NCBI GenBank assembly: GCA_012514045.1
Contig: JAAZBA010000172.1
Location: forward strand, 1-41,994
DNA length: 41,994 nucleotides
DNA from: Clostridiales bacterium
GTDB taxonomy: Bacteria > Bacillota > Clostridia > Oscillospirales > QAMX01
Direction: 5' to 3'
Shown: positions 9,697-41,994 of the stretch, in pieces
Position numbering within the stretch: the stretch's first letter is position 1
Layout of the letters: each line of letters opens with the position of its first letter
Notes under the pieces: model-generated
Told to the model about the DNA's origin: nothing
Database searches by the model: none
The model's input: only the letters and a program-made list of their open reading frames with translations
Program-made: the position numbers and the translations under genes

Positions 9697-9723
9697 TGTT
9701 TTCCGATCCTTTGCTGCTATCTG

Positions 9724-13898: not shown

Positions 13899-13932
13899 TT
13901 TAAATACACATTTACATAAGGATGGTCACAAC

Positions 13933-15384: not shown

Positions 15385-15389
15385 GTATA

Positions 15390-15625
15390 ATCCCCCAATA
15401 TACTGCAGAGCAGGTCTAAGAAGACTGCGGTGCCGGTAAATGCATCCTCCCCCCTTTAGTCAAGGGGGGAAGGAACGAACTATTGTTTTCAGTGGTTAAA
15501 AGAATTGCAGAAAAGATAAATATCCTATCCCCCTAGCCTACGCACTGCAAGCAGTGCTGGGGGGAAACTCGACGCATGTATGCGTCACGCATGTATGCGT
15601 CAAGCGCATTGCGCCGGAGGAGGAT
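15390..15625 (+). repeat. modular palindromic intergenic repeat, copy R1 (long form; modules A-B-H-D-C-C-G)
   Basis: Shares long near-identical stretches with 27471-27664 (inverted) and modules with 21202-21409, 34276-34520, 36675-36897 and 41865-41994. Termini are ATCCCCC...GGAGGAT. Confidence 0.85.
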
Positions 15626-15654
15626 CAATCGCTTCTCCAATATAATAATTTTGT

Positions 15655-16527
15655 TTATTTAATGTCAAAAATCGGGTTTTGCTTTGTTTCCTCACTTGAC
15701 GCGGCTGTTTTCAGATATTCCAGCTCTTCTTTTGTCAGAGGAGCTTCCAAAATAGCGTCAATATGCTTTACCAGATGTTCGAAATGCTGGAAATTTCCGG
15801 GAGGAACCGTAGTAGCCGCTCCCTTGCCGAACGCGTATTTGATCGCCGCCGCCGCAAGCTTATCGTCTCCGAATATAGGTTTGCACCATGACTTCGGATA
15901 AAGTTTTTTTTCGTCCCCATCAATCCACTTGCGCTCCACAAGCGTTTTCATCGCAAGCAAACCCATGCCTTTTTCCTTAACTTTATCGGCAATGCGGTCT
16001 CCCCAGCCTATATTCAATCCCATAGCCCAGTTCATGGGGAAAAGCACCGTGGCAAAGTCAAACATATCCATGATCTGCAATGCTATGTCCTCGTTATGGG
16101 TGGAAAATCCTATTTCTCTTATAAGCCCTTCGCGTTTTGCCCAAATTAGCGTTTCGATAATTCCATCGGAGGAAAAAGCCTTGTCCACATCCTCCTGCGT
16201 CGTCATGGAGTGCATCTGATACACATCAAAATGATCCGTCTGCAGCTCTTTGAGAGAACTTAGGAGCTCTTTTTTTGACCCTTCCTTGTCACGCTCGGTT
16301 GTTTTGCACGCCAGATAGATCTGATTTCTGTAAGGATGTATCGCCGGTCCCAGTCTTTCCTGGGCGTTGCCGTACGTGGGGGCGACATCAAAATAATTCA
16401 CGCCGTTTTCAATAGCGTACGAAACATATTCAGAGGCATTTTCGGCGCTTACATTCGATACAATAATGCCGCCGAACATTACGCAGCTTACATTATACCC
16501 GGTTTTTCCTAAAATTTTATACTTCAT
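15655..16527 (-). CDS. aldo/keto reductase
   Basis: AKR-type N-terminus with YFDVAPTYGNAQERLG (catalytic Asp/Tyr region). About 290 aa, consistent with a TIM-barrel. Confidence 0.8.
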   Translation of the reverse strand: MKYKILGKTGYNVSCVMFGGIIVSNVSAENASEYVSYAIENGVNYFDVAPTYGNAQERLGPAIHPYRNQIYLACKTTERDKEGSKKELLSSLKELQTDHFDVYQMHSMTTQEDVDKAFSSDGIIETLIWAKREGLIREIGFSTHNEDIALQIMDMFDFATVLFPMNWAMGLNIGWGDRIADKVKEKGMGLLAMKTLVERKWIDGDEKKLYPKSWCKPIFGDDKLAAAAIKYAFGKGAATTVPPGNFQHFEHLVKHIDAILEAPLTKEELEYLKTAASSEETKQNPIFDIK

Positions 16528-16621
16528 TATTTATTACCGCTTTCATTTTAAGACGACTAAAATATTTATACTCTCTTTTTTACGTGTTCACAGATACTGC
16601 AAGAAAACCGCATGGTTTTAA

Positions 16622-17095
16622 TCACACGATCGCCAGATTTATGACCTCAATGCCCTTTTCCATCGCCTGCTTCACCGTATAGGCGGTGCCGCCCTTCATT
16701 TCCCTCATGTAGCAAAGGCAGTATGTGCTCAGCTCCACAAGACGGCGGTTCCGGGCGAACATACAGCCCTTTGTGTATGACTCCTGCACATAGGTGTGAC
16801 CGTCGGCGCGGCTCATTATGTCATCATATACCGCCCTGTCCTCTTCGCTCCAGCCTTTCGTCTGCTCCATGCAGGGAAGCACGAGAATAAGGCTTATTTC
16901 CGGATACTCTTTCCTTATTTCCAGCACCTCCAAAGCAGCTATGGTGTCAAAACCCAAAGCTCCGCCGGCGAGGAACACGTTCACGCCCTTGTCGATAAGC
17001 TTTATTATTGTTTCTCGGAGCCTTTGCCGGATACCATCTATCTCACATACGTCAAGATTTCTGTGGCCTGTAAAGCAGCAGCCGATTTTTGCCAT
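16622..17095 (-). CDS. SLOG family protein (DUF1273/YpsA-like)
   Basis: CCFTGHR near the N-terminus, GGALGFD, PC..Q..GW and GGTAYTV motifs in the order I recall for DUF1273 SLOG proteins. 157 aa. No search was run. Confidence 0.6.
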   Translation of the reverse strand: MAKIGCCFTGHRNLDVCEIDGIRQRLRETIIKLIDKGVNVFLAGGALGFDTIAALEVLEIRKEYPEISLILVLPCMEQTKGWSEEDRAVYDDIMSRADGHTYVQESYTKGCMFARNRRLVELSTYCLCYMREMKGGTAYTVKQAMEKGIEVINLAIV

Positions 17096-17099
17096 TGTA

Positions 17100-18122
17100 T
17101 CAGAACCTTATCATGACCTTCATTGCCTTGTCCTTCTGCTCCTCGATGAGCTTGTAGGCGTCGAGATAGTTGTCGAAATCCACATAATGGGTAACAAGGG
17201 TGTCAAGCTCGATAAGTCCCTCGCCCACGAGACGGATAGCCTCAATATAGTCCTCAACCCTGTACATGGCGCTGCCTATGAGGCTGAGTTCATGGTCCTG
17301 CACGAAGCCCATGTTTACCGGAGCAAGTTCCGCCACAACGCCGACGACGATGATAACGCTTCCCTTGCGGGCGATCTCAATAAGCTCGGCAATGACCGCT
17401 TTGCTGCCGATGCACTCGAAGATAACGTCAGCCGCGTCCGGTCCGAAAGCTTCAAAGATCGCGTCACGCAGGTTCTTTTCTTTGGGGTTGACGGTTTTTA
17501 TGCCGCATTTCTCCGCCGCCGCCAGTCTGTAGGCGCTCACCTCGGAGAGAAGCACATCGCCGCCCATGGCTTTGATTGTCTGGGCTACAAGGTTTCCGAT
17601 GGGACCGCCGCCTGTTACGACCGCTTTTTTCCCCTTGATACCGCCGTTTACGGCATAGCGGCGCGCCGCGTGTACCGCCACCGCAAGAGGCTCTATCATG
17701 GCGGCATGCTCAAGGCTCATGCCCTTGGGCAGCTTCAGAGCCTTGGCGGCTTCGGTTACAAAGTACTCGCTGGCCATGCCGGTGGTTTGGAAGCCCATTA
17801 CCTTCAGCACATCGCAGTCATTATACATGCCATGGGTGCAGGGGTAGCACTTTCCGCATACCACCTGGGGCTGGATAGTGACAAGATCTCCCACCTCAAA
17901 ACCCTCCACGCCCTCGCCAAGCTTATCAATAATCGCTGCCACCTCATGTCCCTGAACGACAGGGTAGGAGGTGTAGGGGTGTTTGCCGTGGTATACGTGT
18001 ATATCCGAGCCACATACGCCGATCATCGCCATCTTTACGCGGATCTGTCCCTTTCCCGGCTCCGGGATGGGAACGTTGACGTACTCAATTACGCCCGGCT
18101 GTGTCATTATTGCCTGTTTCAT
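17100..18122 (-). CDS. Zn-dependent alcohol/polyol dehydrogenase (MDR family)
   Basis: GVCGSDIHVYHG, QGHEVAA, CGKCYPCTHGMYNDC, GGGPIGNL. The track ORF extends to 18248, but ATG 18122 (MKQAIMTQPG...) has an AAAGGA RBS and the extension runs through repeat-derived sequence. Confidence 0.85.
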   Translation of the reverse strand: MKQAIMTQPGVIEYVNVPIPEPGKGQIRVKMAMIGVCGSDIHVYHGKHPYTSYPVVQGHEVAAIIDKLGEGVEGFEVGDLVTIQPQVVCGKCYPCTHGMYNDCDVLKVMGFQTTGMASEYFVTEAAKALKLPKGMSLEHAAMIEPLAVAVHAARRYAVNGGIKGKKAVVTGGGPIGNLVAQTIKAMGGDVLLSEVSAYRLAAAEKCGIKTVNPKEKNLRDAIFEAFGPDAADVIFECIGSKAVIAELIEIARKGSVIIVVGVVAELAPVNMGFVQDHELSLIGSAMYRVEDYIEAIRLVGEGLIELDTLVTHYVDFDNYLDAYKLIEEQKDKAMKVMIRF

Positions 18123-18155
18123 TGTTTTTTCCTTTCTGTGATGTGTATTGTGTCG

Positions 18156-18193
18156 CCTCATCAGTCTGATGACGCGGCGCGCCGGAGGGGGAT
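18156..18193. repeat. orphan fragment of the repeat family (F-like CCTCATCAGTCTGATGACGCGGC plus G-like GCGCCGGAGGGGGAT terminus)
   Basis: Matches GCCGCGTCATGAGGCTGATGAGG (R3, inverted) and the CCGGAGGGGGAT terminus of R2. The last base overlaps the stop codon of the epimerase gene. Confidence 0.55.
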
Positions 18194-19056
18194 TACCCCT
18201 CGAATACGCTCCTGATAAACGCCACCGACTCGGCGGCAGCTTCGTCAAGGTCTCTTCCGTGGGTCAGGTCGCGCCAGATCTTTATGTCGCTTCCCACCTT
18301 GCCCCCCATCATAACGAAGGGCTCCATTACAACCGCCTTATTGTAGCCGATCTTACGCAGCGCCTCGGCGATGCCCTGCCAGGGTATGCGACCGTAAGCG
18401 CCGGGGAGACGGCGGTTTACTTCGCCTATGTGGAGGTGACCGAGCTTATCTCCGGCGGCAAGGATCGCTCCTTCGATGCTCTCCTCCTCCATGTTCATGT
18501 GGTAGGTGTCCAGCATGACTTTCACGTTGTCCTTACCCACCTCGTCAACATAGCGTACGCACTCGCTTACCTCGTTGAGCAGATACCCCTCGTGGCGGTT
18601 GAGCACCTCCATGCCCAGGTTTATGCCGTAGGGAGCGGCCATGTCCGCCATGAGCTTCATGCCCTCAACGCTCCTGACCCAGTCTCCCGCCTTGTCGATG
18701 GGCTTTGAGTAGTCCACCGGCCAGTAGGAGTAGAGCCCGCCGCCCACAATGTCAACTCCCAGCTCATGAAGCGCCGGAAACGTCTTTTCCCAGAACCGCA
18801 ATGCGTTATCTCTTATGGCAATGTCCTCGCTCGCGATGTTCTCCGAGAGCTGAGGTCCGTAGCCGGCGGTGATAATAACATCGTGGCGGTCCTTTTCCCT
18901 CTTCAGCTCATCGATTTCTTTTCTCGACATATAGGGGACGCTCGCGCAGGATATTTCAAGGATATCAAAGCCCAGGCGCTTTACTCTTTCAACATAAGGG
19001 GCATAGTCTCCGCCCCATTCTCTCGCCCAGTAGGCGTAATAAATTCCGTATTTCAC
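18193..19056 (-). CDS. D-psicose (D-allulose)/D-tagatose 3-epimerase family sugar epimerase
   Basis: [10 protein letters not shown] start and the metal/catalytic motifs [25 protein letters not shown] and VMEPF align with the characterised DPEase/DTEase family as I recall it. GTG start at 19056. Confidence 0.8.
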
Positions 19057-19466
19057 TTGATGTCTTTAAGCAGATCACGGATCTCCGTGAGCAGCTCCTC
19101 CTCCTTTGTGGGCTTGGGCGCCTCGGGCGCAGGCTCCTCTTTCTTCTTCCGTCTAAAACTGTTGATAAGCTTGACGACTATGAAGATGACCAGCGCCACG
19201 ATGAGGAAATCCACGATAGCCTGAATGAACAGACCATAGGCGATGGCTACAGGCTCTCCGCCGCTGATAGTGGGTATGGGCTTCGTTGTGAGGGTCGAGA
19301 AGTTGATTCCTCCAAGAATGAGACCGATGAACGGCATGATGACGTCGTTTACAAGGGACGTTACGATCTTTGAGAACGCTCCGCCGATGATAACGCCGAC
19401 AGCCATGTCAACGACGTTTCCTCTCAGGATAAATTCCTTAAACTCCTTGATAATTTTGCGTGCCAT
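19053..19466 (-). CDS. mscL: large-conductance mechanosensitive channel MscL
   Basis: [27 protein letters not shown], two TMs, charged C-terminal helix. 137 aa. Confidence 0.95.
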
Positions 19467-19579
19467 AAAAGTTCCTCCTTGCGTTTTTGTTTATATAAAT
19501 TTTTTCGCGCGTTATTTATGAAAATTCCTGAAATCGGCGCTTTCCTGAAGAAAAATGCCGATATTCCATTAAATGTTTC

Positions 19580-20404: not shown

Positions 20405-20417
20405 TGTGATCCTCCTC

Positions 20418-21170: not shown

Positions 21171-21201
21171 TTTCTATACCTCCGTTGAGGGTTGTGTGTG
21201 G

Positions 21202-21409
21202 GTATCCCCCATTATTCTGCAGTGCATATCTAAAAGACTGCGGCGTCGGCAGGTGCTCAGCCGCCCCCTCGACGCATGAAGCGAAGCTTCAAGCGTCAAG
21301 ACAAGGGGGCTAGAGACGCGAATTTTGTCTTTAACGTTTGCAAAAAAGATTCAGGTTCCTATCCCCCTTGACTAAAGGGGATACCGGCGCCGTACGCCGG
21401 AGGGGGATA
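21202..21409 (+). repeat. modular palindromic intergenic repeat, copy R2 (modules A-C-H-B-G; termini TATCCCCC / GGGGGATA)
   Basis: 8-bp terminal inverted repeat read directly. The internal hairpin GACGCATGAAGC-GAA-GCTTCAAGCGTC is shared with R5 and R6. Confidence 0.85.
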
Positions 21410-21412
21410 TCA

Positions 21413-22750
21413 TCACTTCATCTTAAGCTTTACTATCCTTCCCACAGCTTCGTCTACTCTTTCCATGCTCAGTTCGCCGGTTTTTACGGCTTCCAGGAGC
21501 CTGTCGTAGATCTGGTTTTGCTTTTCGTAGGAGTCGCAGGCGCAGAGGAGGTCGGCGCCGTTTTGGATGGCCTTCAGAGCAGCTTCGGCGCTGCCGTATG
21601 TTTCGCTCACCGCCTTCATGTCCAGCGCGTCGGTGACAATTACGCCGTCAAACCCTAAGGTCTCTCTAATATATCTGTACACATCCGCGGACATGGAGGC
21701 GGGATAGCCGTCCTTACACATGACAGAGGAGTAAATATGCGCCGTCATCATCATTTCACACCCTGCCTCAACAGCTGCTCTGAAGGGAGCTATCTCAACT
21801 TCCTCAAGTCTTTTCATATCATGGCTCAGCGTCGCAAGCTCCGTATGGCTGTCCTGGGAGGTGTCGCCGTGGCCGGGGAAGTGCTTCACGCAGGCGGTAA
21901 TTCCCGCGTCGGTCAGTCCCTTCATAAAAGCCAAACCTTTCGATGTGACAGTCCCAACGTCCGTTCCGAACGCTCTGTCACCGATAACCGTGTTCTCCGG
22001 ATTTGTGAACACGTCAAGCACCGGGGCGGCGTCAACCGTTATGCCGAAAGCCATCAGCTCAAGCCCCAGGGTGTAGGCAAGCTTATATACCTCGTCCTCC
22101 GTCATTTTTCCCATCTCCGCGGCGGCGGGCAGGGACACAATGCCATGCTTTATTCTTTTTACCCGTCCCCCCTCCTGATCGATGAACACCATGGGGGAAA
22201 GCCCGGTTTTTTCCTCGATCAGCGCTTTGCACTCCTTGTTCAGGGCGATGAGCTTGTCAAGGTCGCCGCAGGAGGCGGCGAAAAGGAAGGTGTTGCCGTA
22301 GTAACGTTCGGATATATGGTTTTTATCCTCCACTCCGAGGAGCTCGGAGTGGAGGGGGATCGCCATAAGCTGCCCGATCTTCTGCTCAACGGACATGGAA
22401 GCGACGATTTTCTCTATCTCGTTCATTGTTTCCTCCCCGGGCTGTATATCTTCGCTTTTTTCTTTGGTTTTTTGCTCGGTTTGCTCTTCTTTTTCAGGTT
22501 TAACGGCTTCTTCGGCTTTTTCAGGCTCCGAAGTATTCTCTTTCTTTGTCTCCTTTTCTGTCTTTATAACAGTGTGGCTCGTCTCCGGAGAGTATGTCTT
22601 CTGCTCTTCAGGCGAAGGACTTTCATTGACGGTTTCTCCGTTTTCCACAACCTGTGGAGAACCTGACCGGATGGTGCAGCCGGACAAAAGAAGCAGCAGA
22701 AATATCAGGGCTGCAAGCCCAGTTGTAAGCCCAGCTGTCAGCCGTTTCAT
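21413..22750 (-). CDS. GH3 beta-N-acetylhexosaminidase (NagZ-like) lipoprotein with an E/K-rich linker
   Basis: Lipobox LLLLSGC, GH3 motif [14 protein letters not shown], low-complexity linker [17 protein letters not shown]... The start ATG overlaps the gyrA stop (ATGA). Confidence 0.85.
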
Positions 22751-25185: not shown

Positions 25186-25203
25186 TTTCTACCTTCCGGT
25201 TAT

Positions 25204-27430
<2,227 letters not shown>

Positions 27431-27470
27431 ACGCTTTTTCTCCTTTGTTTGTTGTTATAAAAGATACGAA

Positions 27471-27738
27471 ATCCTCCTCCGGCGCACGGCGCTTGACGCA
27501 TACATGCGTGACGCATACATGCGTCGAGTTTCCCCCCAGCACTGCAAGCAGTGCGTAGGCTAGGGGATAGAGCTCGTTCCTTCCCCCCTTGTCTAAAGGG
27601 GGGAAGATGCATTTACCTATATTGCAGTCTTCTTAGATCTGCTCTGCAGCATATTGGGGGATACATTCCAAGCGGCATGCCGCGTCATGAGGCTGATGAG
27701 GCGTGACGTAGCTTCGCTACGTCACGCATATATGCGTC
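27471..27738 (-). repeat. modular palindromic intergenic repeat, copy R3 (core 27471-27664 = inverted R1 without module H; plus F and extra C-type hairpins to 27738)
   Basis: Hand alignment of the reverse complement to R1 gives roughly 90 percent identity. Ends 1 nt before the recF stop codon. Confidence 0.85.
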
Positions 27739-28770
27739 TTACAAATCCTCACAGGTCGTTATAAATACCTGCCCTTCGCGTATTTTCCCCAGGAGATATT
27801 CTCTCCTTGCGGCGTCAAGCTCGCTGAGGACGTCATCCAGCAGCATTATGGGGTATTCTCCCGTGTTGTCATGATATAAAGCCCTTTTTGCCAGCACCAG
27901 TGACAGCACGGCGGTGCGTATCTGACCTTGTGAGGCGAAATCTTTCGCCGGGCGGCCGTCGATAAGAATCGCAAGCTCGTCTCTGTGGGGACCCACAAGG
28001 ATCATCTCCCGGGTGATTTCGTCCTCTTTCCTTTCAAGATACTTTTGCCACATCTCAAGATAAAGGTTCTTTACGTTCTCCGAAAGAAAAGGACAGGAAT
28101 ATGATACGGAGAGGTCTTCTTTTTCTCCCGATATTGAGGAGTGTTCGATAGAAGCAAGTTCTCCTAATTTTTGGCAAAAGCTTTTTCTGTATGTAATAAT
28201 CCTGGCTCCGCAGGAGAGGAGCTGGGAAGTAAAATCGTCCAATGACTCAAGAAGCGAAGGTTTTTTCCTGTGATCCCTCAGTATTCTTGCCTTATGCGCC
28301 AAAAGTTTTCCGTATTCCGACACAAGGGAAGCGTAATTCGGCCTAAGCTGAGAGATAGAGATGTCCAAAAATCTTCGTCTTTGGACTCCGGCGCCCTTTA
28401 TAAGCTCCAGATCGTCTGGACAAAAGGAAACGCAGCGCACGACGCCGATTATGTCGGATTTTCTTTTTTTCCGTACGTCGTTTAAGAAATATGTCCTTCC
28501 CTGTCCGTCGCGGCGTATCTCCAGTTTCTGTTCTCTGCCGTCTGAAAATATATTTGCCCTTATACGGAAAGAATCGGCGCCGTAAAGCACCATATCTCCG
28601 TCGCGGGAAGTGCGGAAAGAGCCTGTGCCGGTAAGAAAGTGGATCGACTCAAGAAGATTTGTCTTTCCCGATGCGTTTTCTCCTCGGATTATGTTAACCC
28701 CTTCTAACGGCTCGTATATCTTATGTTCGTAACTTCTGAAGTTGTCAAGCTCAATGCGCCTGAGTATCAT
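27739..28770 (-). CDS. recF: DNA replication and repair protein RecF
   Basis: Walker A GENASGKTNLLESI, signature/Walker B region LLDDVLSELD. Start overlaps the yaaA stop (ATGA). Confidence 0.92.
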   Translation of the reverse strand: MILRRIELDNFRSYEHKIYEPLEGVNIIRGENASGKTNLLESIHFLTGTGSFRTSRDGDMVLYGADSFRIRANIFSDGREQKLEIRRDGQGRTYFLNDVRKKRKSDIIGVVRCVSFCPDDLELIKGAGVQRRRFLDISISQLRPNYASLVSEYGKLLAHKARILRDHRKKPSLLESLDDFTSQLLSCGARIITYRKSFCQKLGELASIEHSSISGEKEDLSVSYSCPFLSENVKNLYLEMWQKYLERKEDEITREMILVGPHRDELAILIDGRPAKDFASQGQIRTAVLSLVLAKRALYHDNTGEYPIMLLDDVLSELDAARREYLLGKIREGQVFITTCEDL

Positions 28771-28970
28771 GTTATTTCAATCTCTTCGCCCCGGCATAGG
28801 ATAATGTCTCCGACCCGGAGCTTTTTGCCCCGCTGGGTGCAGATATTTCCGTTTACCCTGACGAGACCAAGCTGGATATCGTGCTTCGCTTCTCCTCCGG
28901 AATAGACAATGCCGGAAAATTTGAGCAGATCATCCAGCTTTATATACTCTGTAGATATTTGTATCTTCAT
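28767..28970 (-). CDS. yaaA: S4 domain RNA-binding protein YaaA
   Basis: 67 aa with IKLDDLLKFSG...GGEAK...V.VNG......GKKLRVGD. Sits in the conserved dnaN-yaaA-recF position. Confidence 0.85.
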   Translation of the reverse strand: MKIQISTEYIKLDDLLKFSGIVYSGGEAKHDIQLGLVRVNGNICTQRGKKLRVGDIILCRGEEIEIT

Positions 28971-28982
28971 AAAAAAACCTCT

Positions 28983-30107: not shown

Positions 30108-30132
30108 AGTTTAATCCTTTCGTTACTGTTCC

Positions 30133-30409
30133 TTTTTATTTATATAATAATAAAAGAACGAGAATGACGTAGTAGTAGTACGTAATAGCTGTGGAAATGT
30201 GGAAAAGTTTTTTATCTTGCCTTAAATCTTCGGAAATACGTCAAATATTTCGGTCTGCGGCTGATTTTTGCCGGGGAGAAAGTTGCTGTTTGCGATGAAA
30301 CGTTTTTCACAGCGTCATGTTTAAAAGTTAAGCTCTCTCCACAGCTTTCCACAGGGAAAAACGGGCTGTGGAAAAAGTTTTCCCTTTTCCACGGGATAGC
30401 TGTGGATGA
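30133..30409. other. oriC. Components: AT-only 23-mer (30133-30155); TAG/GTA trinucleotide repeats (30169-30188); at least 8 DnaA-box-like 9-mers at 30190 TGTGGAAAT, 30198 TGTGGAAAA, 30303 TTTTTCACA, 30335 CTCTCCACA, 30345 CTTTCCACA, 30367 TGTGGAAAA, 30385 TTTTCCACG, 30401 TGTGGATGA
   Basis: All read directly. Lies in the dnaA-dnaN intergenic region, as in Bacillus-type origins. The extended motif AGCTGTGGA recurs three times exactly (30187, 30398, and inverted at 30338) and once as GGCTGTGGA (30364). Confidence 0.8.
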
Positions 30410-30475
30410 GTGAGAGGGAAATTTATCTTATTTTATGGAGCAAAAAAGCTGTTTTATGGGGATTTGCTTGGTGGA

Positions 30476-31777: not shown

Positions 31778-31826
31778 ATCAGTTGTCCTTTCCGTAGTGT
31801 GATCGAAAGTGTATATCATAAAGTAT

Positions 31827-31855
31827 ATTATACTACATTTTGTTTTCTTTTACAA
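31827..31855 (-). promoter_or_regulatory. dnaA promoter (minus strand: TTGTAA = complement of 31850-31855, 17-nt spacer, TATAAT = complement of 31827-31832)
   Basis: Hexamers read directly. Confidence 0.55.
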
Positions 31856-31874
31856 GCAAAATATGCCGGAATCC

Positions 31875-31903
31875 TTGACAAAAGAAAACACCCGTGCTAT
31901 AAT
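31875..31903 (+). promoter_or_regulatory. thrS promoter (TTGACA 31875-31880, 17-nt spacer, TATAAT 31898-31903)
   Basis: Perfect consensus hexamers at optimal spacing. Confidence 0.75.
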
Positions 31904-31909
31904 ATCTTG

Positions 31910-32220
31910 AAAAGCGATGATGGGAAAAGTAGCCGTATCAAATCCCTTCCAGAGAATGGCGCTTTCACATATTTTTATTAAAAATACGTGAAAGCTGGAA
32001 TGCGCCTAAGGGAAGAGCGATGTGAAGACCATCCCCGAGCTCCCGGTTTGAAATGAAAAGAGTAGGGCAGGGCGGGTTTTATGCCTCCGTTAAAGGGCTT
32101 ACGTAAAAGAGGCGCGGTTTTTCCGTTTGGAAAAGCCCGCAACCGGAGTGGAACCGCGGCCGATTGCGTCGTCTCCGTCGAGAGATATTGTCTCTCAGCG
32201 GAAGGCGATTTTTTTATTTT
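31910..32220 (+). promoter_or_regulatory. T-box riboswitch leader, threonine-specific (specifier ACC at 32028-32030)
   Basis: Stem I start AGCGATGATGGGAAAAGTAG, AGAGA box, specifier loop GAAGACCA, F-box CCGTTA (32087-32092), T-box sequence AACCGGAGTGGAACCGCGG (32141-32159), then a terminator hairpin (about 32168-32208) followed by a T-run. Confidence 0.85.
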
Positions 32221-32257
32221 ATTCAAAAAATCTAACCGATATAAAGGAGCAAATATC

Positions 32258-34204: not shown

Positions 34205-34238
34205 GCGTTTCTTAAATAATAATTTGACATATCAAGCT

Positions 34239-34270
34239 GGGGCTGCAGCGAAACAATCCGCCGCAGCCCC
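34239..34270 (+). terminator. GC-rich hairpin downstream of thrS (GGGGCTGCAGCG-N8-CGCCGCAGCCCC; no T-run)
   Basis: 12-bp stem with one mismatch, 34 nt after the stop codon. The 14-mer GGGGCTGCAGCGAA is shared with the hairpin at 38594. Confidence 0.45.
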
Positions 34271-34275
34271 GATTG

Positions 34276-34520
34276 ATCCCCCTCCGGCGCAATGCGCCGG
34301 TTTCCCCCTTTAGTCAAGGGGGATAGAGTCCGTTCCTTCCCCCCTTGTCTAAAGGGGGGAAGATGCATTTACCGATATTGCAATCTTTTTAGACCTGCTC
34401 TGCGGTATATTGGGGGATACATTCCAAGGCTTCCCCTTGATTGCGAAGCTGTCTTATGATGCGGCGTGCCGCAGCATGAGACTGATGAGGAGAAACTTGA
34501 CGCAAGTATGCGTCGCGCAG
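34276..34520 (-). repeat. modular palindromic intergenic repeat, copy R4 (core 34276-34420: G, B in both orientations, A; plus F and C-type hairpins to about 34520)
   Basis: Termini ATCCCCC / GGGGGATAC. 34339-34420 is nearly identical to 27583-27664. Confidence 0.85.
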
Positions 34521-34551
34521 AATAATGAGAGGAATCCTCCCCATAAAACGC

Positions 34552-34579
34552 TTGCAATCCCGCATGATTGGGGTATAAT
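34552..34579 (+). promoter_or_regulatory. candidate promoter (TTGCAA 34552-34557, 16-nt spacer, TATAAT 34574-34579) for the beta-helix gene
   Basis: Hexamers read directly. GGGAGGAG RBS before ATG 34610. Confidence 0.5.
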
Positions 34580-34609
34580 ATAATTAACTAAGAAAAGGGA
34601 GGAGAAGCT

Positions 34610-36067
34610 ATGGATATTTACAGCCCGAATTATTATCTTGAAGCGGCGGATGATGCCGAGATGATCCAGCTTGCGGTGGACGCGGCGGCGGAGCGGGGAG
34701 AAAAAGTGATCATACCCCGGCGTAATCTCCGTACGGGAGAGGACATCTGGCGTATCCCGAGAGCTGTCAAGCTCTATACAGGCAGCGCCGTCATCATCGA
34801 CAGCGCGCGTCTACGGCAAACGGACGATTCCTTTGACAACATCTTCAAAAACTCCTTTGCCCGTACCGAGGCGGGTAAAAAGCTTGAAAACCGGCAGTAT
34901 GACATAACGATCGAAGGCATTGGAGACGCGATACTCGACGGGGGAAACCATAACGGTCTTGTGGAGCGGAACCAGAACAGTGACGGACGTCCATATGTCA
35001 TCGTAAATTCCCCTATCCATCTCGTAAACTGCGAGAGGATAAGGGTAAAAAATCTGAAAATCGTCAACAGCCGCTATTGGGGCATGTGCTTCCATTACTG
35101 CTCCGACGGCAGAGTATCCGACATATATTTCACATCCCAAGGAAACTGCCCCAATCAGGACGGCGTAGACCTGCGCACGGGCTGCTCCGATTTTATAATC
35201 GAGAATATCTCTGGCTATACCCAGGACGACACCGTGGCGCTCACCTGCCTTGAGGGAAAGGGCACCGACTATCTCTGCAGGGTAGAGAACATGGACGATT
35301 CCATCCACAACGTGATCATCAGGAACGTCACCTCCGGCACGAGGTGCGCCCAGATAAGGCTTTTGAACAACTACGGAAAGAAGCTCTATAACGTTATAAT
35401 CGAAAACGTTCAGTCAAGCGCGGAATACGACCCAACGGACAGCCGCGCCCGGGAGCTTCCTCTCCGAATCCCTAAGGGAGAACACTATTACCCTGAAACC
35501 TCCTGCGCCATGCCGGATAACGTCTACTGGAGTACCTTTGAGGGCGGCGAGAGAAGAGCGGGAGCCTACGTCAGGATAGGCGAAAACCACTATTTCGATC
35601 CGAATAACCCGGATTCCAGAGCGAAACTCGGTGATACATTCAATATTATCGTAAGAAACGTACAGTCAAGGAACCTTTACCCGGTGATAATATCCCGCAC
35701 GCTGTGCGACTCGGTCATAGAAAATGTCCAAGCCTTCGGCGACAGCAACGTGGCGGTGTTCTTTGACGGAGGGGAGTTTGACAACATAACTTTGCGGGAC
35801 ATCTCCTACAGCCGCGCCTCCCGCCGCAGGGATACGGACAAAGGTACGGAGAACCCCGGCCAAAGGCAGTATAAATACTGTTCCAGCGTCTACTTCAACG
35901 GAAGCAGCGCCGAAAATCTGCGCTTTGACACCGTGGTCACCTCAGAGACCTCCGAGGCGGTGTTCGCCGGAGACGGAAATGTCTCTCTTACGGCAAGAAA
36001 TATCGTTAAGAGGAGAGAGGATATCCCCACTGTTTTAGGCGAGGGCATTAAAGTAACGGAGTATTGA
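34610..36067 (+). CDS. right-handed parallel beta-helix protein, GH28-like glycoside hydrolase
   Basis: Periodic beta-helix pattern. NQDGVDL and QDDTVAL resemble the GH28 NTDG and DD motifs. No signal peptide. Confidence 0.5.
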   Translation: MDIYSPNYYLEAADDAEMIQLAVDAAAERGEKVIIPRRNLRTGEDIWRIPRAVKLYTGSAVIIDSARLRQTDDSFDNIFKNSFARTEAGKKLENRQYDITIEGIGDAILDGGNHNGLVERNQNSDGRPYVIVNSPIHLVNCERIRVKNLKIVNSRYWGMCFHYCSDGRVSDIYFTSQGNCPNQDGVDLRTGCSDFIIENISGYTQDDTVALTCLEGKGTDYLCRVENMDDSIHNVIIRNVTSGTRCAQIRLLNNYGKKLYNVIIENVQSSAEYDPTDSRARELPLRIPKGEHYYPETSCAMPDNVYWSTFEGGERRAGAYVRIGENHYFDPNNPDSRAKLGDTFNIIVRNVQSRNLYPVIISRTLCDSVIENVQAFGDSNVAVFFDGGEFDNITLRDISYSRASRRRDTDKGTENPGQRQYKYCSSVYFNGSSAENLRFDTVVTSETSEAVFAGDGNVSLTARNIVKRREDIPTVLGEGIKVTEY

Positions 36068-36081
36068 AAACAGGAATAAAC

Positions 36082-36672
36082 ATGGGTGAGCATTATTTTA
36101 CAAGGGATCCCGGCGCTGAGCATGAGGAGAAGGAGATACTCTTCTCCTGCCGGGGGAAAAAATGCGTCTGCGTAACCGATTCGGGAGTTTTCTCCCGTGA
36201 CGGCCTCGACGAGGGCACAAGGCTTCTGCTGGAGTCGCTGCCAAAGCTTTCGGGCAGAGTGCTGGACTTAGGGTGCGGTTGGGGTCCCGTGGGGCTGATA
36301 TTAGGTCGCTGCTTCCCGGATATTGAGATCGTCATGACGGACATAAACGAGCGGGCGGTGGACTTGGCCAACAGGAACCTGAGGAAAAACGACGTGACAA
36401 ACGCATACGCCGTGCAGGGCGACATAACGGAAAACGTGGCAGGTCCCTTCGACGCGGTTATCCTCAATCCCCCCATCCGTACAGGCAAAGAGAACGTGTA
36501 TAAAATGTACGACGAGTCCCACGCCTGCCTGAAAGATGGCGGCGCGCTGTATATCGTGATAAGAAAGCAGCAGGGCGCGGAATCCACCGCGAAGCATTTA
36601 AAGACAGTGTTTTTAGAAGTGGAGAGAATCGAAAGAGATAAAGGATACTGGGTGCTCAGGTGCATGAAGTGA
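36082..36672 (+). CDS. class I SAM-dependent methyltransferase, YbxB/RsmC-like (MTS domain)
   Basis: EHYFTRDP...TDSGVFSRD...VLDLGCGWGPVGL...DINERAV...ILNPPIRTGKE pattern. The probable start is ATG 36082, within track ORF 36064-36672. Confidence 0.8.
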   Translation: MGEHYFTRDPGAEHEEKEILFSCRGKKCVCVTDSGVFSRDGLDEGTRLLLESLPKLSGRVLDLGCGWGPVGLILGRCFPDIEIVMTDINERAVDLANRNLRKNDVTNAYAVQGDITENVAGPFDAVILNPPIRTGKENVYKMYDESHACLKDGGALYIVIRKQQGAESTAKHLKTVFLEVERIERDKGYWVLRCMK

Positions 36673-36674
36673 CA

Positions 36675-36897
36675 GTATCCCCCTCCGGGTCTGCGTGACG
36701 CATGAAGCTTTGCTTCAAGCGTCGGGAATCCCTTCAACACTGCTTGCAGTACGTAGGCTAGGGAGATAGGGTCTAAATCCTTCTGCAAACTCAAAAACAG
36801 AGCTTCGTATCCTTCCCCCCTTGTCTAAAGGGAGGAAAGAAAAGGTTGCGGACACCACAGTCTCTTCAGGTCTGCGCTGCAGAATACTGGGGGATAC
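36675..36897 (-). repeat. modular palindromic intergenic repeat, copy R5 (223 bp; perfect 9-bp termini GTATCCCCC / GGGGGATAC; modules G(partial)-C-D-H-B-A)
   Basis: Read directly. Starts 2 nt after the methyltransferase stop codon. Confidence 0.85.
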
Positions 36898-36947
36898 AAA
36901 ATTATTATTAAAACAAAACCAACACACATATATAAAGGAGGAAAAAT

Positions 36948-38573
36948 ATGCTTAAAATCGGATGGGCGGAGAGGGATATTACCACCTACGGGCCCGCGTA
37001 TATTCCGGGGTTTTTCAACATGAGAATCTCAAGGGGAGTTATTGACCCTGTGTTTACCACAGCCCTTGTGGTTGAGGACGGAAACGACATCGCCATTTTC
37101 CTTTCTGTGGACACCTGCGTCATGCGCTCGTTTCTGCTCGACGAGATAAGAGCGAAGACAAAGCGGAAAAACCCGGAAATCCCGGTGGAGAAAATCCTTG
37201 CCTCAGCCATGCATCAGCATACCGCCCCCAGCCACTACTATGACGGCGGTGAAATCGACGAATGCCTCTACGATATCTACACTAAGGAAGAAATCGATAA
37301 AATCCTTGAGGGCTATATCCCCGGCTCCAACATGGTCGTCCCCAGAGACGGAGTTGTGATAGAGTCCAGCGACAAATACCGCGCTTTCCTCTCAGATCAG
37401 GCCTCCGACGCCATATGCGAGGCTTACGCCAGCCGCAAGGAAAGCGGCATCGCCTACGGTTACGGCTACGGTGTTGTTGCCCACTCAAGGCGCACGGTGT
37501 ATTTTGACGATACCTCCCTTCGCCCCGGGGCGCAGAGCGATCCCCTCACCTCCCTCCACGGCCACGCAAGAATGTACGGTGAGACAAACGACGATAATTT
37601 CGCTTCCTTCGAAGCGGGCGAGAATCACTATGTCAACATCATGTACACTTTTGACAAGGACAAAAAGCTGACCGGCGCTATAATCAATATCCCCTGTCCC
37701 TCCCAGAACTCCGAGGGCGAGGCGGACTGCCATATCACCGCCGATTACTGGTGCGACGTAAAGAAAGCCATAAGGGCGCGCCATGGAGACATATTTATCT
37801 TATCCCAGTGCGCCGCCGGCGGCGACCTGTCACCCCATTTGCTCTACTATAAGGACGCGCGACTCCGCCGTTTCCGTCTAAAGTACGGTCTCAGTGAAGC
37901 CAAAGGCACAATTGACGAAAAAATGGCCGCAGGAGGCGCGATGCATCCGGCGGGCACAAGAGTCGAGGAGCTTGAGAGACGGGAGATAGGGGAGAGAATA
38001 GCTTCCTGTTTCGATGAGGTGCTGTCCTGGGCGAAAAACGACATACGCACAGAGGCCGAGATCTGCCACAAGGTGGAGACGGTCGAATTGAGCCGCAGGA
38101 TCATAACAGATGAAGAGTATAGATTCTGCCTCGATCAGCTTGAAGCCCTTAAGGACGAGGAGTACCGTTTCGACCAGGGCTCCTCCATCGATAATCTTGA
38201 CTACAACTCTACGCTGAAGTCAAAGAGAGCCCGCTTCATGGGCGCGATAAACCGCTACAAGACCCAGAAGGAGAACCCGAAGAAGAAGATGGAGCTTCAC
38301 GCCATCAAGATCGGCGACATAGCTTTTGCTTCCAACCAGTTTGAGCTGTATATGGACTATATGCACCGTATCCAGGCCAGAAGCCCATTTGAGCAGACAT
38401 TTGTGGTCCAGCTTTCCGGTCAGCCCGGCATGGACGGCGGCTCCTACCTCGCAACCGAACGGGCGGTGGAGAACAGAGGCTATTCCGCCAGCATGTTCTG
38501 CAACACCGTATCCCCGAAGGGCGGTCAGGAGCTGGTGGAAGCCACATTAAAGGCTCTGCGGGAGATTAAGTAA
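36948..38573 (+). CDS. hypothetical protein with a neutral/alkaline ceramidase-like N-terminal domain
   Basis: N-terminus MLKIGWAERDITTYGPAYIPGF...GVIDPVFTTALVVEDGNDIAIFLSVD resembles the ceramidase_alk N-domain pattern from memory. AAAGGAGG RBS upstream. Confidence 0.4.
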   Translation: MLKIGWAERDITTYGPAYIPGFFNMRISRGVIDPVFTTALVVEDGNDIAIFLSVDTCVMRSFLLDEIRAKTKRKNPEIPVEKILASAMHQHTAPSHYYDGGEIDECLYDIYTKEEIDKILEGYIPGSNMVVPRDGVVIESSDKYRAFLSDQASDAICEAYASRKESGIAYGYGYGVVAHSRRTVYFDDTSLRPGAQSDPLTSLHGHARMYGETNDDNFASFEAGENHYVNIMYTFDKDKKLTGAIINIPCPSQNSEGEADCHITADYWCDVKKAIRARHGDIFILSQCAAGGDLSPHLLYYKDARLRRFRLKYGLSEAKGTIDEKMAAGGAMHPAGTRVEELERREIGERIASCFDEVLSWAKNDIRTEAEICHKVETVELSRRIITDEEYRFCLDQLEALKDEEYRFDQGSSIDNLDYNSTLKSKRARFMGAINRYKTQKENPKKKMELHAIKIGDIAFASNQFELYMDYMHRIQARSPFEQTFVVQLSGQPGMDGGSYLATERAVENRGYSASMFCNTVSPKGGQELVEATLKALREIK

Positions 38574-38593
38574 TAAGCAAATAAAAACTAATC

Positions 38594-38627
38594 GGGGCTG
38601 CAGCGAATTTTGTTTCGCTGCAGCCCC
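38594..38627. terminator. hairpin terminator between convergent genes (perfect 14-bp stem GGGGCTGCAGCGAA / TTCGCTGCAGCCCC)
   Basis: Read directly. There is a T-rich tract on the minus-strand side (complement of AAATAAAAACTAATC) and none on the plus side. Confidence 0.65.
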
Positions 38628-38649
38628 TCCACATATGATTATTTATATT

Positions 38650-40839
38650 TTACTGTACCTTCTCAAGAAGAGCGTAGACGATGGCGGCGGCTTCTTTTTT
38701 GGTTATAGTCTTGTCGGTGATCTTTCCGGCGGGCAGGAGGCCCATGGCGTCGGAGACGGCGGCATAACCGACCTTATCCTTCGCTATGTCTTCATAGCCC
38801 TTGTCCTTAAAGAGCTCGGAGAGTTTAGCGACCTCGCCGAAGCGGAAGGCGTCAAGGGAATAGACCACGGCCTGAAGGGCAGATATCTTTTCATCTTTAG
38901 GAACGATCTTATCTTTAATTATTCCGTACTTCGAAAGCTGGGAGACGAAGGGAGAATAATTTTCCTTTAAGATGGGGTAAGGACCGTAGAAGCGGCTGTA
39001 TGCGGAGGCGAGCATGTACAGAAGCTCTGTGTCTGTGACATCCTCATCAAAATCGACCTTATCGATGCTTTCCTCACCGAAGGTTACGCCCACGGAGTAG
39101 AGTTTCTCGATGTATTCGGGGTATTCACCCGCCGCTGCTTCCTCTTCGGGCTCATATTCCTCTCCGTCGTAGTCCACAACAAAGCCCTTTAGAGCGTCAA
39201 CAGCTGATAACTGGGCGTCAACCGTGTAGACAAGTGAGTAGGAGATAATATCCCCGAACTCATCTCTGACAGGACTGTAGCGAAGGTCTGTGCCGTAAAA
39301 CTCTGCTATCGCCTTCTTCGCCGCGGTGTCGCCTATGGCGCCGAAAACCGAGGGGAATGTGATGTTTTCTTCCCAGTTGAGGTTAAAGGAAGAGACCTTT
39401 CCGGTGTAGCAGTCATAGCGTATTGAGACGCCGTTTGAGTAGTAGGGCACGCCTTCGTTGGTGCGCACATAGTTATAGAATATATAGCGGTCGTTGCCGG
39501 ACATATTTGTAAATTCAAGTCCGTCATTCTTTTCAAGCCTCATGCTCTCCCGGTATTTCTCGGGAACGAAGGCCTTCATGACTTTTTCAACCTCCTCCGG
39601 GGCTTTCTTTATGTAGAAGTCCGGATTTGAAGGTATTGTGGCGTTGTAGTCATAGGTATAGAAGGAGAGGAGAGCTCCCGTTTTCGCGTCAAGGGTCATG
39701 GAAACGTTCAGGTCGGACTTGCCGGCGTTTTCTTCCTTATCTCTGTCAAAAGCAAAGACGAAATCCAGACCCCAGCGGTATTGATCTTCATAGCCTGTAA
39801 GGCGGTAGTTTGTGAGCTTGTAGGAATTGAGGGAAAAGTAGTCAAAGCTTCTAGCCTTCTTCTCTATCTCCTCAAGGCTCAGAAGTCCGGGGAGCTTTTC
39901 AAGGGCGCCGATTTCCGCCTCTGATAGACGGACGCCGCCCATGCCTTCGGCTGACTTAGCCATATCCATCTCTGCCTCTTCCGTGGCGGCGTTATGGTCG
40001 TAGCCAATGTACTCATAGAGATCCGCTTCCTCGCCGGTGAAGGCGTCAATTACCTTGCCGGACACATTGTATACGGGACGTATGAACTTTACGTTGTCCT
40101 CGCCGTAGAAGTCACGGTACACAAGCTCAGCCTCGCTCAGGGATATGTAGGCGCTTGCGGCTTTTTTGTCGCCGATGACCTCGGATACGGCGGCATATTC
40201 CACGCCCTCAGGTATGGGGAACGCATTGTAGAGCGTGGCGATGCCGTTGATGCCGTCAACGATGATGTGAACATAGCTTCCCTCAATGGGGACATTGTTT
40301 TTCACGCCCTCGTAGACAAAGGAGTAGGAGTTTGAAAACTTGGTTACCGGGGTTTCCTTCAGCCTGTAGGCGGAATAGCCTTTGGGCATGAGCTTGCGCA
40401 GCGTCGCGGAGGCTGTCTTCTCCGCGTCCACGGAGCTTACGTTCGGCAGCTTGCGGTACTCGCCGTAGTAGACATCGCTGCTGCAGCCGTAGGAGTAGAT
40501 GAAGCCGTCCTCCGAGCACTCGACGTAGATGTGATTTGGCTCTCCGTCGATTTCATAGTTCCAGTTGAAGGAGAACACGGTGCCCAGCTGGTTTGAGTAT
40601 GTGTAGCTGTCAAACTCCGCGTCATCGGGGACGTCGATCCTGCTCTTGACAGATATGAGAGCTTTCTCCATAAGGGCTTTGAGATCCTTCGTTTCTGTTT
40701 CCTCCTCTATAGGTTTTTCTGCTATGGGCATGACGGCTAAGTCGTCAATGACCTCTTCTGTCGGCGTAACAACGGCGGCGAGGGACGCCGCTGACAGCGC
40801 CATCATAAGAGCCAGAGCCAATGCGATTGTTTTCTTCAT
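38650..40839 (-). CDS. secreted repeat protein with a C-terminal SLH-like region
   Basis: Signal peptide MKKTIALALALMMALSAASLAAV from ATG 40839 (GAAAGGA RBS). The C-terminal roughly 150 aa resemble S-layer-homology repeats (FKDKGYEDIAKDKVGYAAVSDAMGLLPAG). The rest is unassigned. Confidence 0.45.
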   Translation of the reverse strand: MKKTIALALALMMALSAASLAAVVTPTEEVIDDLAVMPIAEKPIEEETETKDLKALMEKALISVKSRIDVPDDAEFDSYTYSNQLGTVFSFNWNYEIDGEPNHIYVECSEDGFIYSYGCSSDVYYGEYRKLPNVSSVDAEKTASATLRKLMPKGYSAYRLKETPVTKFSNSYSFVYEGVKNNVPIEGSYVHIIVDGINGIATLYNAFPIPEGVEYAAVSEVIGDKKAASAYISLSEAELVYRDFYGEDNVKFIRPVYNVSGKVIDAFTGEEADLYEYIGYDHNAATEEAEMDMAKSAEGMGGVRLSEAEIGALEKLPGLLSLEEIEKKARSFDYFSLNSYKLTNYRLTGYEDQYRWGLDFVFAFDRDKEENAGKSDLNVSMTLDAKTGALLSFYTYDYNATIPSNPDFYIKKAPEEVEKVMKAFVPEKYRESMRLEKNDGLEFTNMSGNDRYIFYNYVRTNEGVPYYSNGVSIRYDCYTGKVSSFNLNWEENITFPSVFGAIGDTAAKKAIAEFYGTDLRYSPVRDEFGDIISYSLVYTVDAQLSAVDALKGFVVDYDGEEYEPEEEAAAGEYPEYIEKLYSVGVTFGEESIDKVDFDEDVTDTELLYMLASAYSRFYGPYPILKENYSPFVSQLSKYGIIKDKIVPKDEKISALQAVVYSLDAFRFGEVAKLSELFKDKGYEDIAKDKVGYAAVSDAMGLLPAGKITDKTITKKEAAAIVYALLEKVQ

Positions 40840-40932
40840 ACAGATCATTCCTTTCAATTGTTTTTAAAATGCTTTCTGTACTTCATTTGACGCAGTAAAG
40901 AGTAGAAAAGTTCCGAAGTCTGAAAAAATTTT

Positions 40933-41820
40933 TTATAAATCCGCTTTCATGCCGTCGTAAGCGAGAATAATCCTTCCATCCCCCTCTTTAAGGCGGTTTT
41001 CAAAGTCCTCGTCGGAGAGATAGTTGTCGGTGGAGGTGGCAAGATGAGTGGCGTATATTTTCGCGTCAGGGGAGATTATGCCGTATTCCGAAAAGCGGCG
41101 GACGTTTTCGATGAAGTTAAGGCCGTTTAAGTGGGAATGGTGCTCCGGCGTTTCCATTATACCCCTAGTGGACTCCATTATGAGGACGTCACAGGAGCTG
41201 CCCTCGAGGGCTTTCAGATTGTCCTCGCTGTAGAGACCGCTGTCCGCGACGTAGAGAAGCCTCTTACCGTCGGGGAAGGTGAAGCGGTAGTTGAGGGCAT
41301 ACTCTCCCTCTCCGTAGGACATGTGGTTTGACTGTACGGCGAACACGATCATGCCGTCGATTTTATGGTCACGGTATGGCTCAAAGGGCGCGAAGCGGAC
41401 GAGATTTCGCTTTATAAGATCTTCCATGCCCGTGACGGGGCTGTGGTGCTTTGATTCAGCCATGAGCCCGAAGAGCCAGCGGAAGCCCTCCGGGGACATA
41501 TACACGGTGACAGCGTGCTCCGAGGGACGGGCGGTCATGGAGTGGACATTTATGTTTGAAAAAGAGAGGTGATCCTCATGGGTGTGGGTGATGAAGATGC
41601 TCCGCAGCTCCGTAAAGGAGACTCCGAAGTCCATGACGGAAGCCATGACGTCCGGTCCGAAATCCACGCAGGTACGTGTCCCAAGCATTGCGCAGCTTCT
41701 GCGGCGGGGCTTTCTCTTTCCCTCAGATATGAGTTTTCTGGCGGTTTCGCAGTGTGAGCAGTTGCAGAAGGGGTTGGGGTTCATCTCCGCCGCCCCCGTC
41801 CCGAGAAATGTGATGTTCAT
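40933..41820 (-). CDS. MBL-fold metallo-hydrolase (PhnP-like)
   Basis: ITHTHEDH (HxHxDH) motif, N-terminal Cys cluster CNCSHC, later His/Asp ligands. GGAGG RBS upstream. Confidence 0.75.
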   Translation of the reverse strand: MNITFLGTGAAEMNPNPFCNCSHCETARKLISEGKRKPRRRSCAMLGTRTCVDFGPDVMASVMDFGVSFTELRSIFITHTHEDHLSFSNINVHSMTARPSEHAVTVYMSPEGFRWLFGLMAESKHHSPVTGMEDLIKRNLVRFAPFEPYRDHKIDGMIVFAVQSNHMSYGEGEYALNYRFTFPDGKRLLYVADSGLYSEDNLKALEGSSCDVLIMESTRGIMETPEHHSHLNGLNFIENVRRFSEYGIISPDAKIYATHLATSTDNYLSDEDFENRLKEGDGRIILAYDGMKADL

Positions 41821-41864
41821 GATGTTTCCTCCGATATGTGTTGTTTTTTTGTATTAATGATTTT

Positions 41865-41994
41865 GTATCCCCCAATATGCTGCGGTGCAGATCAAGAAGA
41901 CCGCGGGGCTGGTAAGTGTGTAGTCTCCCTCACGACGCTTGAAGATTAGCTAAGCTTCAAGCGTCAAGACAATGGAGGAAGGGAACAGCTCCAA
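41865..41994 (+). repeat. modular palindromic intergenic repeat, copy R6 (A then C modules; truncated by the window edge)
   Basis: Begins GTATCCCCCAATATGCTGCGGTGCAG... Contains GACGCTTGAAG-ATTAGCTA-AGCTTCAAGCGTC followed by AAGACAATGGAGG, as in R2. Confidence 0.8.

Follow-up and report, generated by a model that had tools for sequence, protein, structure and literature searches.

Small mosaic repeats, well known from a few cultured model bacteria, have been little described for uncultured Clostridia. In architecture, the family reported here comes closest to the Streptococcus pneumoniae BOX elements and their BOX-type counterparts in S. suis, which combine seven sub-sequences in certain permutations (Croucher et al., 2011, PMC3049150). 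Two further groups serve for comparison: the repetitive extragenic palindromes (REP), bacterial interspersed mosaic elements (BIME) and REPINs with their REP-associated tyrosine transposase (RAYT) (Bertels and Rainey, 2011, PMC3116915; PMC3337134), and the Correia elements of Neisseria, RUP and other classical MITEs (miniature inverted-repeat transposable elements), which are AT-rich and fairly uniform in length and have terminal inverted repeats (TIRs) of at least 20 nt and TA or other target duplications (Delihas, 2011, PMC3184786; also PMC3049150). We analysed a stretch of 41,994 nt, hereafter the window, which is the entire contig JAAZBA010000172.1 of a metagenome-assembled genome (MAG) labelled "Clostridiales bacterium" (GCA_012514045.1). 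It belongs to an uncultured Clostridia lineage, has the gene content of a Firmicutes origin region and encodes a RecF whose nearest relatives are only 65-66% identical. Its spacers carry palindrome-rich composite elements that we read, with a probability of roughly three in four, as lineage-specific, small, non-coding, non-autonomous mosaic interspersed repeats proliferating within the genome in a BOX-, BIME- or MITE-like manner. The family is previously undescribed and is assigned to no named family; its kind, BOX/BIME-like mosaic repeats and selfish DNA, is ordinary and known.

Copies were located by direct reading of the sequence, by a repeat search and with an nhmmer profile made of the copies after orienting them. 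The first-pass annotation, made from the sequence alone, had proposed six composites (R1 to R6) and one fragment assembled from a shared set of hairpin modules. All seven were recovered by the profile and no further copy was found in the window; the profile search of bases 1-15,000 was empty, in agreement with the earlier impression that the left 15 kb lacks the family, and the patterns of modules A, B, C, D and F match solely within the elements. Both orientations occur, R1, R2 and R6 lying on the forward strand and R3, R4 and R5 on the reverse. The elements measure 147-240 nt and make up 3.3% of the window.

Each element is divided into sub-units by the 8-nt T motif TATCCCCC and its inverse GGGGGATA (T'), and the sub-units are filled by GC-rich hairpin modules of 16-30 nt (A, B, C/C', D, F1, F2 and G). 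The consensus order runs T (GTATCCCCC), A1 (AATATnCTGCAGnGCAG), A2 hairpin, A3 (GGTAAATGCATC), B hairpin (CCCCCCTTTAGACAAGGGGGG), K (GGAACG), then an optional AT-rich H spacer, T, D or an inverted B (B'), none, one or two C hairpins (GACGCATGTATGCGTC), the palindrome G and, as the last part, AGGGGGAT(A). Module F joins the F1 hairpin GCTTCCCCTTGATGGGGAAGC to the F2 hairpin. The A-end and the G-end are conserved, and variation is found in H, D/B', C, C' and F. At 7-9 nt the TIR, (G)TATCCCCC, is short; the terminal motifs described earlier agree at 9/9 positions in R5 (GTATCCCCC at 36675-36683, GGGGGATAC at 36889-36897) and at 8/9 in R2. The copies in the window are as follows.

15386-15625, plus strand: R1, a full composite, T (TAATCCCCC)-A1-A2-A3-B-K-H spacer-T-D-T'-C-C-G-GGAGGAT (profile span 15389-15625), with the terminator hairpin of glyS on one side and the 3' end of a convergent aldo-keto reductase gene on the other.
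18150-18193, plus strand: F+G fragment (same profile span), half of F2 (CCTCATCAGTCTGATGACGCGG), the G palindrome and a GGGGGAT end, upstream of the ADH start at 18122; its end overlaps the epimerase stop codon (TAA, minus strand, 18193-18195).
21202-21421 including flank, plus strand: R2, T-A1-(A2 variant)-B with a long C' nested in its loop-H-T-inverted B-T'-G-GGGGGATAT (profile span 21202-21408), its A-end ~30 nt upstream of the parA start.
27471-27665, minus strand: R3 core (same profile span), T-A1-A2-A3-B-K-T-D-T'-C-C-G-GGAGGAT, with the remB ATG 40 nt downstream of the G-end.
27666-27738, minus strand: R3 outer extension, a linker CATTCCAAG, an F2 half (GCGGCATGCCGC..CATGAGGCTGATGAGG), a 12-bp hairpin (GCGTGACGTAGC/GCTACGTCACGC) and a C hairpin that directly adjoins the recF stop codon.
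34276-34421, minus strand: R4 core (same profile span), T-A1-A2-A3-B-K-T-inverted B-T'-G-GGGGGAT.
34422-34530, minus strand: R4 second tandem unit, the linker CATTCCAAG, F1, F2 and C hairpins and a degenerate A-end (GCGCAGAATAATGAGAGGAATCC).
36664-36897 including flank, minus strand: R5, T-A1-(A2 variant)-B-H-T-D-C'(long)-CCCGGAGGGGGATAC (profile span 36677-36898), its A-end 50 nt upstream of the ATG of a 541-aa open reading frame (ORF).
41865-41985, plus strand: R6, a half-element that runs T-A1-A2-B with nested C' and gives way to unrelated sequence (profile span 41864-41992), its A-end ~45 nt upstream of the ATG of an MBL-fold gene.

Module order had been described as differing between copies, and this holds for module F, which is genuinely shuffled: in R3 and R4 it is found beyond the A-end, inside copy X2 on the separate contig L072 it replaces A2-A3-B, and it has almost nothing else beside it in a further copy, X3, and the fragment at 18.1 kb. 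Among themselves the six window copies are less re-ordered than was claimed, being mostly colinear once oriented; the order G-C-D-H-B-A given for R5 is merely the reverse complement of that of R1. R4 consists of two tandem units, the outer one having the architecture of X2, while R6, judged from the longer contig L013, is truncated to A and B/C'. A long C' hairpin is nested in the B loop of three copies (R2, R6 and one on L072), and the G hairpin comes in the versions CCGGCGC/GCGCCGG, CCGGCG/CGCCGG and GCCCG/CGGGC. The repeat search brings out the patchwork: R3 is 96% identical to R1 over 96 nt in the D-C-C-G part and 93% identical to R4 over 110 nt in the A-B part, and R4 resembles R2 in its G part and R1 in its flank.

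Full copies are predicted to fold strongly on both strands, with minimum free energies (MFE) of -73 to -97 kcal/mol and z-scores of -3.8 to -7.3 against dinucleotide shuffles. R1 reaches -97.1 kcal/mol (z -5.4), and the R4 core -72.9 kcal/mol on the A-to-G strand and -75.9 on the G-to-A strand (z -7.3 and -6.3). The terminal ATCCCCC and GGGGGAT pair with each other in the MFE structures of R1-R5. The elements have a GC content of 53%, compared with 50% for the window and 30-41% for the other spacers, and gene callers called no ORFs in the inspectable copies.

Searches for an identity returned no named relative. In Rfam, the check proposed by the first-pass annotation, the elements match no known RNA family: the window yields a single tRNA at the gathering threshold, and positions 15000-41994 yield only a T-box at E<=1. 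The segment CTGATGAGG of module F (27686-27701, 34475-34490 and 18156-18171), followed in R4 by GAGAAAC, resembles a hammerhead core; this reading was dropped, no ribozyme match appearing in Rfam at E<=1. The A-end pattern has no true match in 185,579 GTDB species genomes (the source genome is not among them), the sole hit, in an Acidaminococcus (L001), being a chance 23-mer within a gene. Plasmids and phages show no similarity to the elements. In IMG/VR the A-end pattern has no match, and the 57 loci matching the B-hairpin pattern contain no element by profile search, a hairpin of a C-run and a G-run being generic by itself. A query of 83 stop-free translated element pieces joined as one protein returned nothing at E<=1, probably swamped by random word matches.

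The evidence for insertion comes from a syntenic relative, GCA_964461815.1 (contigs L003 and L074), which has the same gene order. Its gaps compare with those of the organism studied here as follows.

recF-remB gap: 15 nt in the relative, 308 nt here.
GH3-parA gap: 2 nt in the relative, 242 nt here.
epimerase-ADH gap: 27 nt in the relative, 70 nt here.
tktC-pfkB gap: 69 nt in the relative, 282 nt here.

No module of the family was found at any locus of the relatives, and no repeat family of its own was found in the syntenic region of L003. The gaps of the relatives are thus small and free of modules, and the copies are lineage-specific insertions; as far as sequence comparison with the closest available genomes reaches, it is only in this lineage that they entered short spacers and the outermost 3' parts of genes. 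The first-pass reading of an unnamed, modular, palindrome-rich family of REP/BIME or BOX type is therefore borne out by the missing Rfam match, the mosaic hairpin modules, the short inverted terminal motif and the absence from the orthologous sites of relatives. Its remark that every gap above 200 bp holds an element was circular, because the elements themselves make those gaps large; the left 15 kb contains no gap above 200 nt.

Damage to the adjoining gene is seen at two junctions. RecF (27739-28770, minus strand) has 343 aa where both close relatives have 363 aa; it lacks some 20 conserved residues (…NEELLLRELSADVRVFVPPELT) at the C-terminus and ends in ITTCEDL, and no trace of the lost 3' end is found beyond the element. 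GH3 is 6 aa shorter than its ortholog and ends ATG AAG TGA inside a flank common to R2 and R5. This 12-nt flank, CATCACTTCAT, lies beyond the G-end of both R2 and R5 (21413-21421; 36664-36672). Read as ATGAAGTGA, it encodes the final Met-Lys-stop of GH3 at R2 and of an RsmC-like methyltransferase at R5, genes that are unrelated to each other and lie upstream. Abutment on stop codons, noted earlier for three copies, is seen within 0-3 nt at four junctions (R2, R5, the fragment and the R3 extension), and at some junctions the element now supplies the stop codon of the upstream gene.

On the side of the downstream genes, CA-rich leaders (…ACACA…GGAGG) separate the element end from the ribosome-binding site in five genes (36898-36947, 41821-41864, 21171-21201 and 18123-18149 in the window; 72-110 in L013). 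The leaders downstream of R5 and R6 are similar over ~50 nt, as far as the start codon.

The copies are also reproducible. Those with unique flanks recur in Logan assemblies of SRR13001970, SRR22590163 and ERR14064716 and in JGI Ga0123334/5, that is, in five samples and three pipelines, with 100% identity for most and at least 99.5% for all; the few mismatches all lie outside the elements. Identical copies with their flanks in independent assemblies exclude an artefact, and four further copies in other assemblies of the same organism show that the family is not confined to the window, so neither of these two doubts raised at first reading is borne out. The A-end pattern, which by design matches all six window copies, was found in three true contigs among 241 million JGI metagenome records, two of them identical to R3 and R5 and one (L010) holding a new copy. 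The kinase gene of L010 led to L072, a 12.5-kb contig of the same organism with three copies in its three largest gaps, and L013 contains an extra copy 40 nt upstream of purD. Altogether 11 loci are known in ~56 kb of this organism (seven in the window, one on L013 and three on L072), a density of about one copy per 4-5 kb where sampled. Five contig ends from independent assemblies lie within copies, as does the right end of the window itself (R6), which is expected of a multicopy repeat.

We favour the interpretation as mosaic interspersed repeats on these grounds, and the proliferation it implies can be pictured as follows. An enzyme acting in trans, its gene lying elsewhere in the genome, would mobilise the elements through recognition of the terminal motif or the hairpins. 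The mosaics may arise by recombination or gene conversion between copies, combined with nested insertion of hairpin modules. When co-transcribed, the stem-loops (-73 to -97 kcal/mol) may serve as 3'-end or processing structures of the mRNA, as opposed to terminators or promoters, and any regulatory effect would be a by-product.

Several observations weigh against this interpretation. Neither a transposase, which the first-pass annotation had suggested looking for beside the hairpins, nor any other candidate mobilising gene was found in the ~56 kb examined. No consistent target-site duplication was found at the copies examined: TA flanks both sides only in R2 and R5, the other flanks differ among copies, and the GAGGATTT(C)GTA on both sides of R3 overlaps its own end motif. 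Similarity extends past the terminal motif by 6-50 nt in the pairs R1/R4, R2/R5 and R5/R6, so that the ends are fuzzy and some copies could stem from recombination instead of transposition. The strict A-end pattern finds only one copy beyond the window in the 241 million JGI records, and no presence/absence polymorphism was seen among the five samples.

The resemblance to BOX is one of organisation. As in BOX, composite non-coding intergenic repeats are made of distinct modules with pairing conserved ends and variable inner modules; they range from ~70 nt to several hundred nt, lie in both orientations, fold tightly if transcribed, cluster, nest, disrupt or modify genes and have no known dedicated transposase. 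However, no sequence similarity is expected, and the elements match nothing in Rfam, plasmids or phages; the host is an uncultured Clostridia lineage, and the palindromes are short and GC-rich (16-30 nt) whereas the boxes measure 45-60 nt. Tandem arrays like those of boxB do not occur here, at most two C hairpins standing together, and the target duplications reported for BOX (PMC3049150) are not evident. With classical MITEs the family shares a size of 100-250 nt, terminal inverted repeats, an intergenic location, occasional co-transcription and orthologous empty sites. It departs from them in having a GC content above the intergenic background, a TIR of 7-9 nt, a highly variable composition and no consistent duplication.

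An explanation that we regard as unlikely is a REP/REPIN-BIME system, in which REP-like hairpins are moved as single-stranded DNA by a single-copy RAYT (Y1/HUH) encoded elsewhere and the mosaics are BIME-like clusters. The elements are made of short GC-rich palindromes in extragenic space and stand out from AT-rich spacers, unlike classical MITEs; they form mosaics, show no consistent target duplication, sit right after stop codons and belong to a lineage-specific family. In addition, a tetranucleotide (G/C)TAT lies directly 5' of the C-run stem, where the REP head sits, and inverted T/T' motifs form long hairpins, as REPINs do by definition (PMC3116915). RAYT/REPIN systems are, however, known chiefly from Proteobacteria (PMC3116915, PMC3337134), whereas the host is a member of the Firmicutes/Clostridia, and no RAYT occurs in the 56 kb examined. 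The anatomy differs as well, no single REP being repeated here: seven or more distinct hairpin sequences (A2, B, C, D, F1, F2 and G) have only the 8-nt terminal motif in common, which alone recurs inverted. A REP family is made of copies of a single palindrome headed by GT[AG]G; the head here is GTAT or CTAT (ATAT in copy X1, TAAT in R1).

Distinctly improbable in our view is that the elements are selected cis-regulatory RNAs, such as mRNA stabilisers, RNase III/E sites or insulators that decouple the recF-remB-gyrBA and GH3-parAB genes, retained for their function. Their predicted structures are very stable, five copies lie between co-oriented genes that are contiguous in relatives, the G hairpin keeps its pairing potential despite differing stem sequences, and BOX, ERIC and Correia elements show such effects (PMC3049150). 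The elements run in the G-to-A sense in 6 and in the A-to-G sense in 2 of the 8 co-directional cases, a bias that is not significant; folding is about equal on both strands, and the count of stem mismatches (G:T 25, A:C 12, overlapping alternative stems counted) does not decide on a functional strand. A role as intrinsic terminator or promoter was rejected: the core elements contain no stem followed by a T-run and no strong sigma-70 consensus. One promoter-like match falls in the outer unit of R4 (34497-34526), and a better promoter-like site follows at 34552-34579. Moreover, R1, R4, X1 and X2 lie beyond terminator-like hairpins or in convergent gaps, and copies also occupy divergent gaps where no defined transcript is expected, which makes a required RNA role unlikely. 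The elements are also missing from all relatives, and RecF has been truncated by them.

A bolder proposal, which we hold to be somewhat more doubtful still, combines mobility with co-option. A family of hairpin DNA, concentrated near oriC, would use single-stranded DNA at replication forks to spread, either with no classical transposase or with a novel one, and would have been co-opted to remodel ancient operons (recF|remB-gyrBA, GH3|parAB, tkt|pfkB) by supplying stop codons, 3' stem-loops and shared CA-rich 5' leaders to core genes and by mediating local rearrangements such as the relocation of the block from GH95 to AP endonuclease. In the relative, this region of L074 reads thrS-dpaA-dpaB-GH20-GH95-x-tktN-tktC-pfkB-AP_endo…DUF4901, and it corresponds to window positions 34205-40857 together with L072: the GH95-to-AP_endo block is here on L072, with repeat copies at both of its ends, and R4 stands right after thrS. 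This synteny break could be a repeat-associated rearrangement. A GC-rich hairpin of 34 nt, present beside R4 (34237-34270) and again at 38.6 kb, may tentatively be counted as part of the mosaic.

34237-34275, plus strand: hairpin E, GGGGCTGCAGCGAAAC..GCAGCCCC followed by GATTG, after thrS and joined to the G-end of R4.
38594-38627, minus strand: second copy of hairpin E, in a 76-nt convergent gap, scored terminator-like by the scan.

Compared by eye, the two copies of hairpin E are ~85% alike over 38 nt. The loop of the second (38608-38613) is inverted in the Logan assembly L013 (TTTTGT versus ACAAAA), either an inversion polymorphism or an assembly effect.

Very improbable is a function as origin-proximal protein-bound sites for nucleoid organisation, condensin loading or DnaA titration, which would explain a cluster near dnaA. 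Elements occupy 7/21 gene junctions in the 27 kb around dnaA, against 0/13 for the left 15 kb (P = 0.02). Of the three JGI contigs with the A-end pattern, two map into the window, and the T motif TATCCCCC and the DnaA box share TATCC. Against this, the separate contig L072 is equally dense (3/9 junctions), and low-coverage assemblies favour origin-proximal DNA and so bias recovery. The T motif differs from TTATCCACA at 3/9 positions and bears no likeness to parS or Noc sites; all three identities are ruled out on sequence, and near-consensus DnaA boxes cluster in the dnaA-dnaN gap instead. The link to the origin implied by the first-pass annotation, whose sole support is the difference in occupied junctions, is not established, and origin-proximal enrichment of the family is unproven. 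That the elements reflect faulty assembly or binning, or chimeras joined at repeats, has a negligible chance of being correct: contigs do often end within copies, and whole copies with both unique flanks in the independent assemblies refute it.

The genes of the window are, in order, glyS, an aldo-keto reductase, ADH, a psicose-epimerase-like gene, mscL, parB/noc, parA, GH3, gyrA, gyrB, remB, recF, an S4-like gene, dnaN, dnaA, a divergent T-box leader with thrS, GH28, a methyltransferase, two unknown ORFs and the MBL-fold gene. The dnaA-dnaN spacer (30108-30475) measures 368 nt with 38% GC, similar to the relative's spacer of 398 nt; it is without a repeat element, and its three near-consensus DnaA boxes comprise two of TTTTCCACA and one of TCATCCACA. 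The T-box leader upstream of thrS (31908-32179, plus strand) scores 77.9 bits, under the Rfam gathering score of 93, with E = 1.6e-15, and a perfect TTGACA-17-TATAAT promoter-like site lies ahead of it at 31875-31903. The 541-aa ORF (36948-38573, plus strand) has no Pfam or NCBIfam match and neighbours a DUF4901 protein gene (38650-40857, minus strand); for the MBL-fold gene (40933-41820, minus strand), precomputed Pfam matches include the Anti-Pycsar Apyc1 family (PF23023). Look-ups of the exact DnaA, TetR and ADH proteins returned no record. Another relative (L005, 4895-5093) has a 197-nt gyrB-gyrA gap with short repeats of its own (GTAGAGATGTAT / GTAGATGTATCAT) and a hairpin (GACGATTCGTGAATCGTC), unrelated to the family of the window.

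As elements of this kind are already known, the family opens no new class of biology. It explains why the MAG and other assemblies break at these sites, and it could mislead gene callers. In metagenomes the lineage can be tracked with it as a highly specific marker. Having invaded the conserved and normally compact gene clusters near dnaA and shortened RecF at its C-terminus, the family offers a clean natural case for the spread of such elements and for the tolerance of the genome that carries them.

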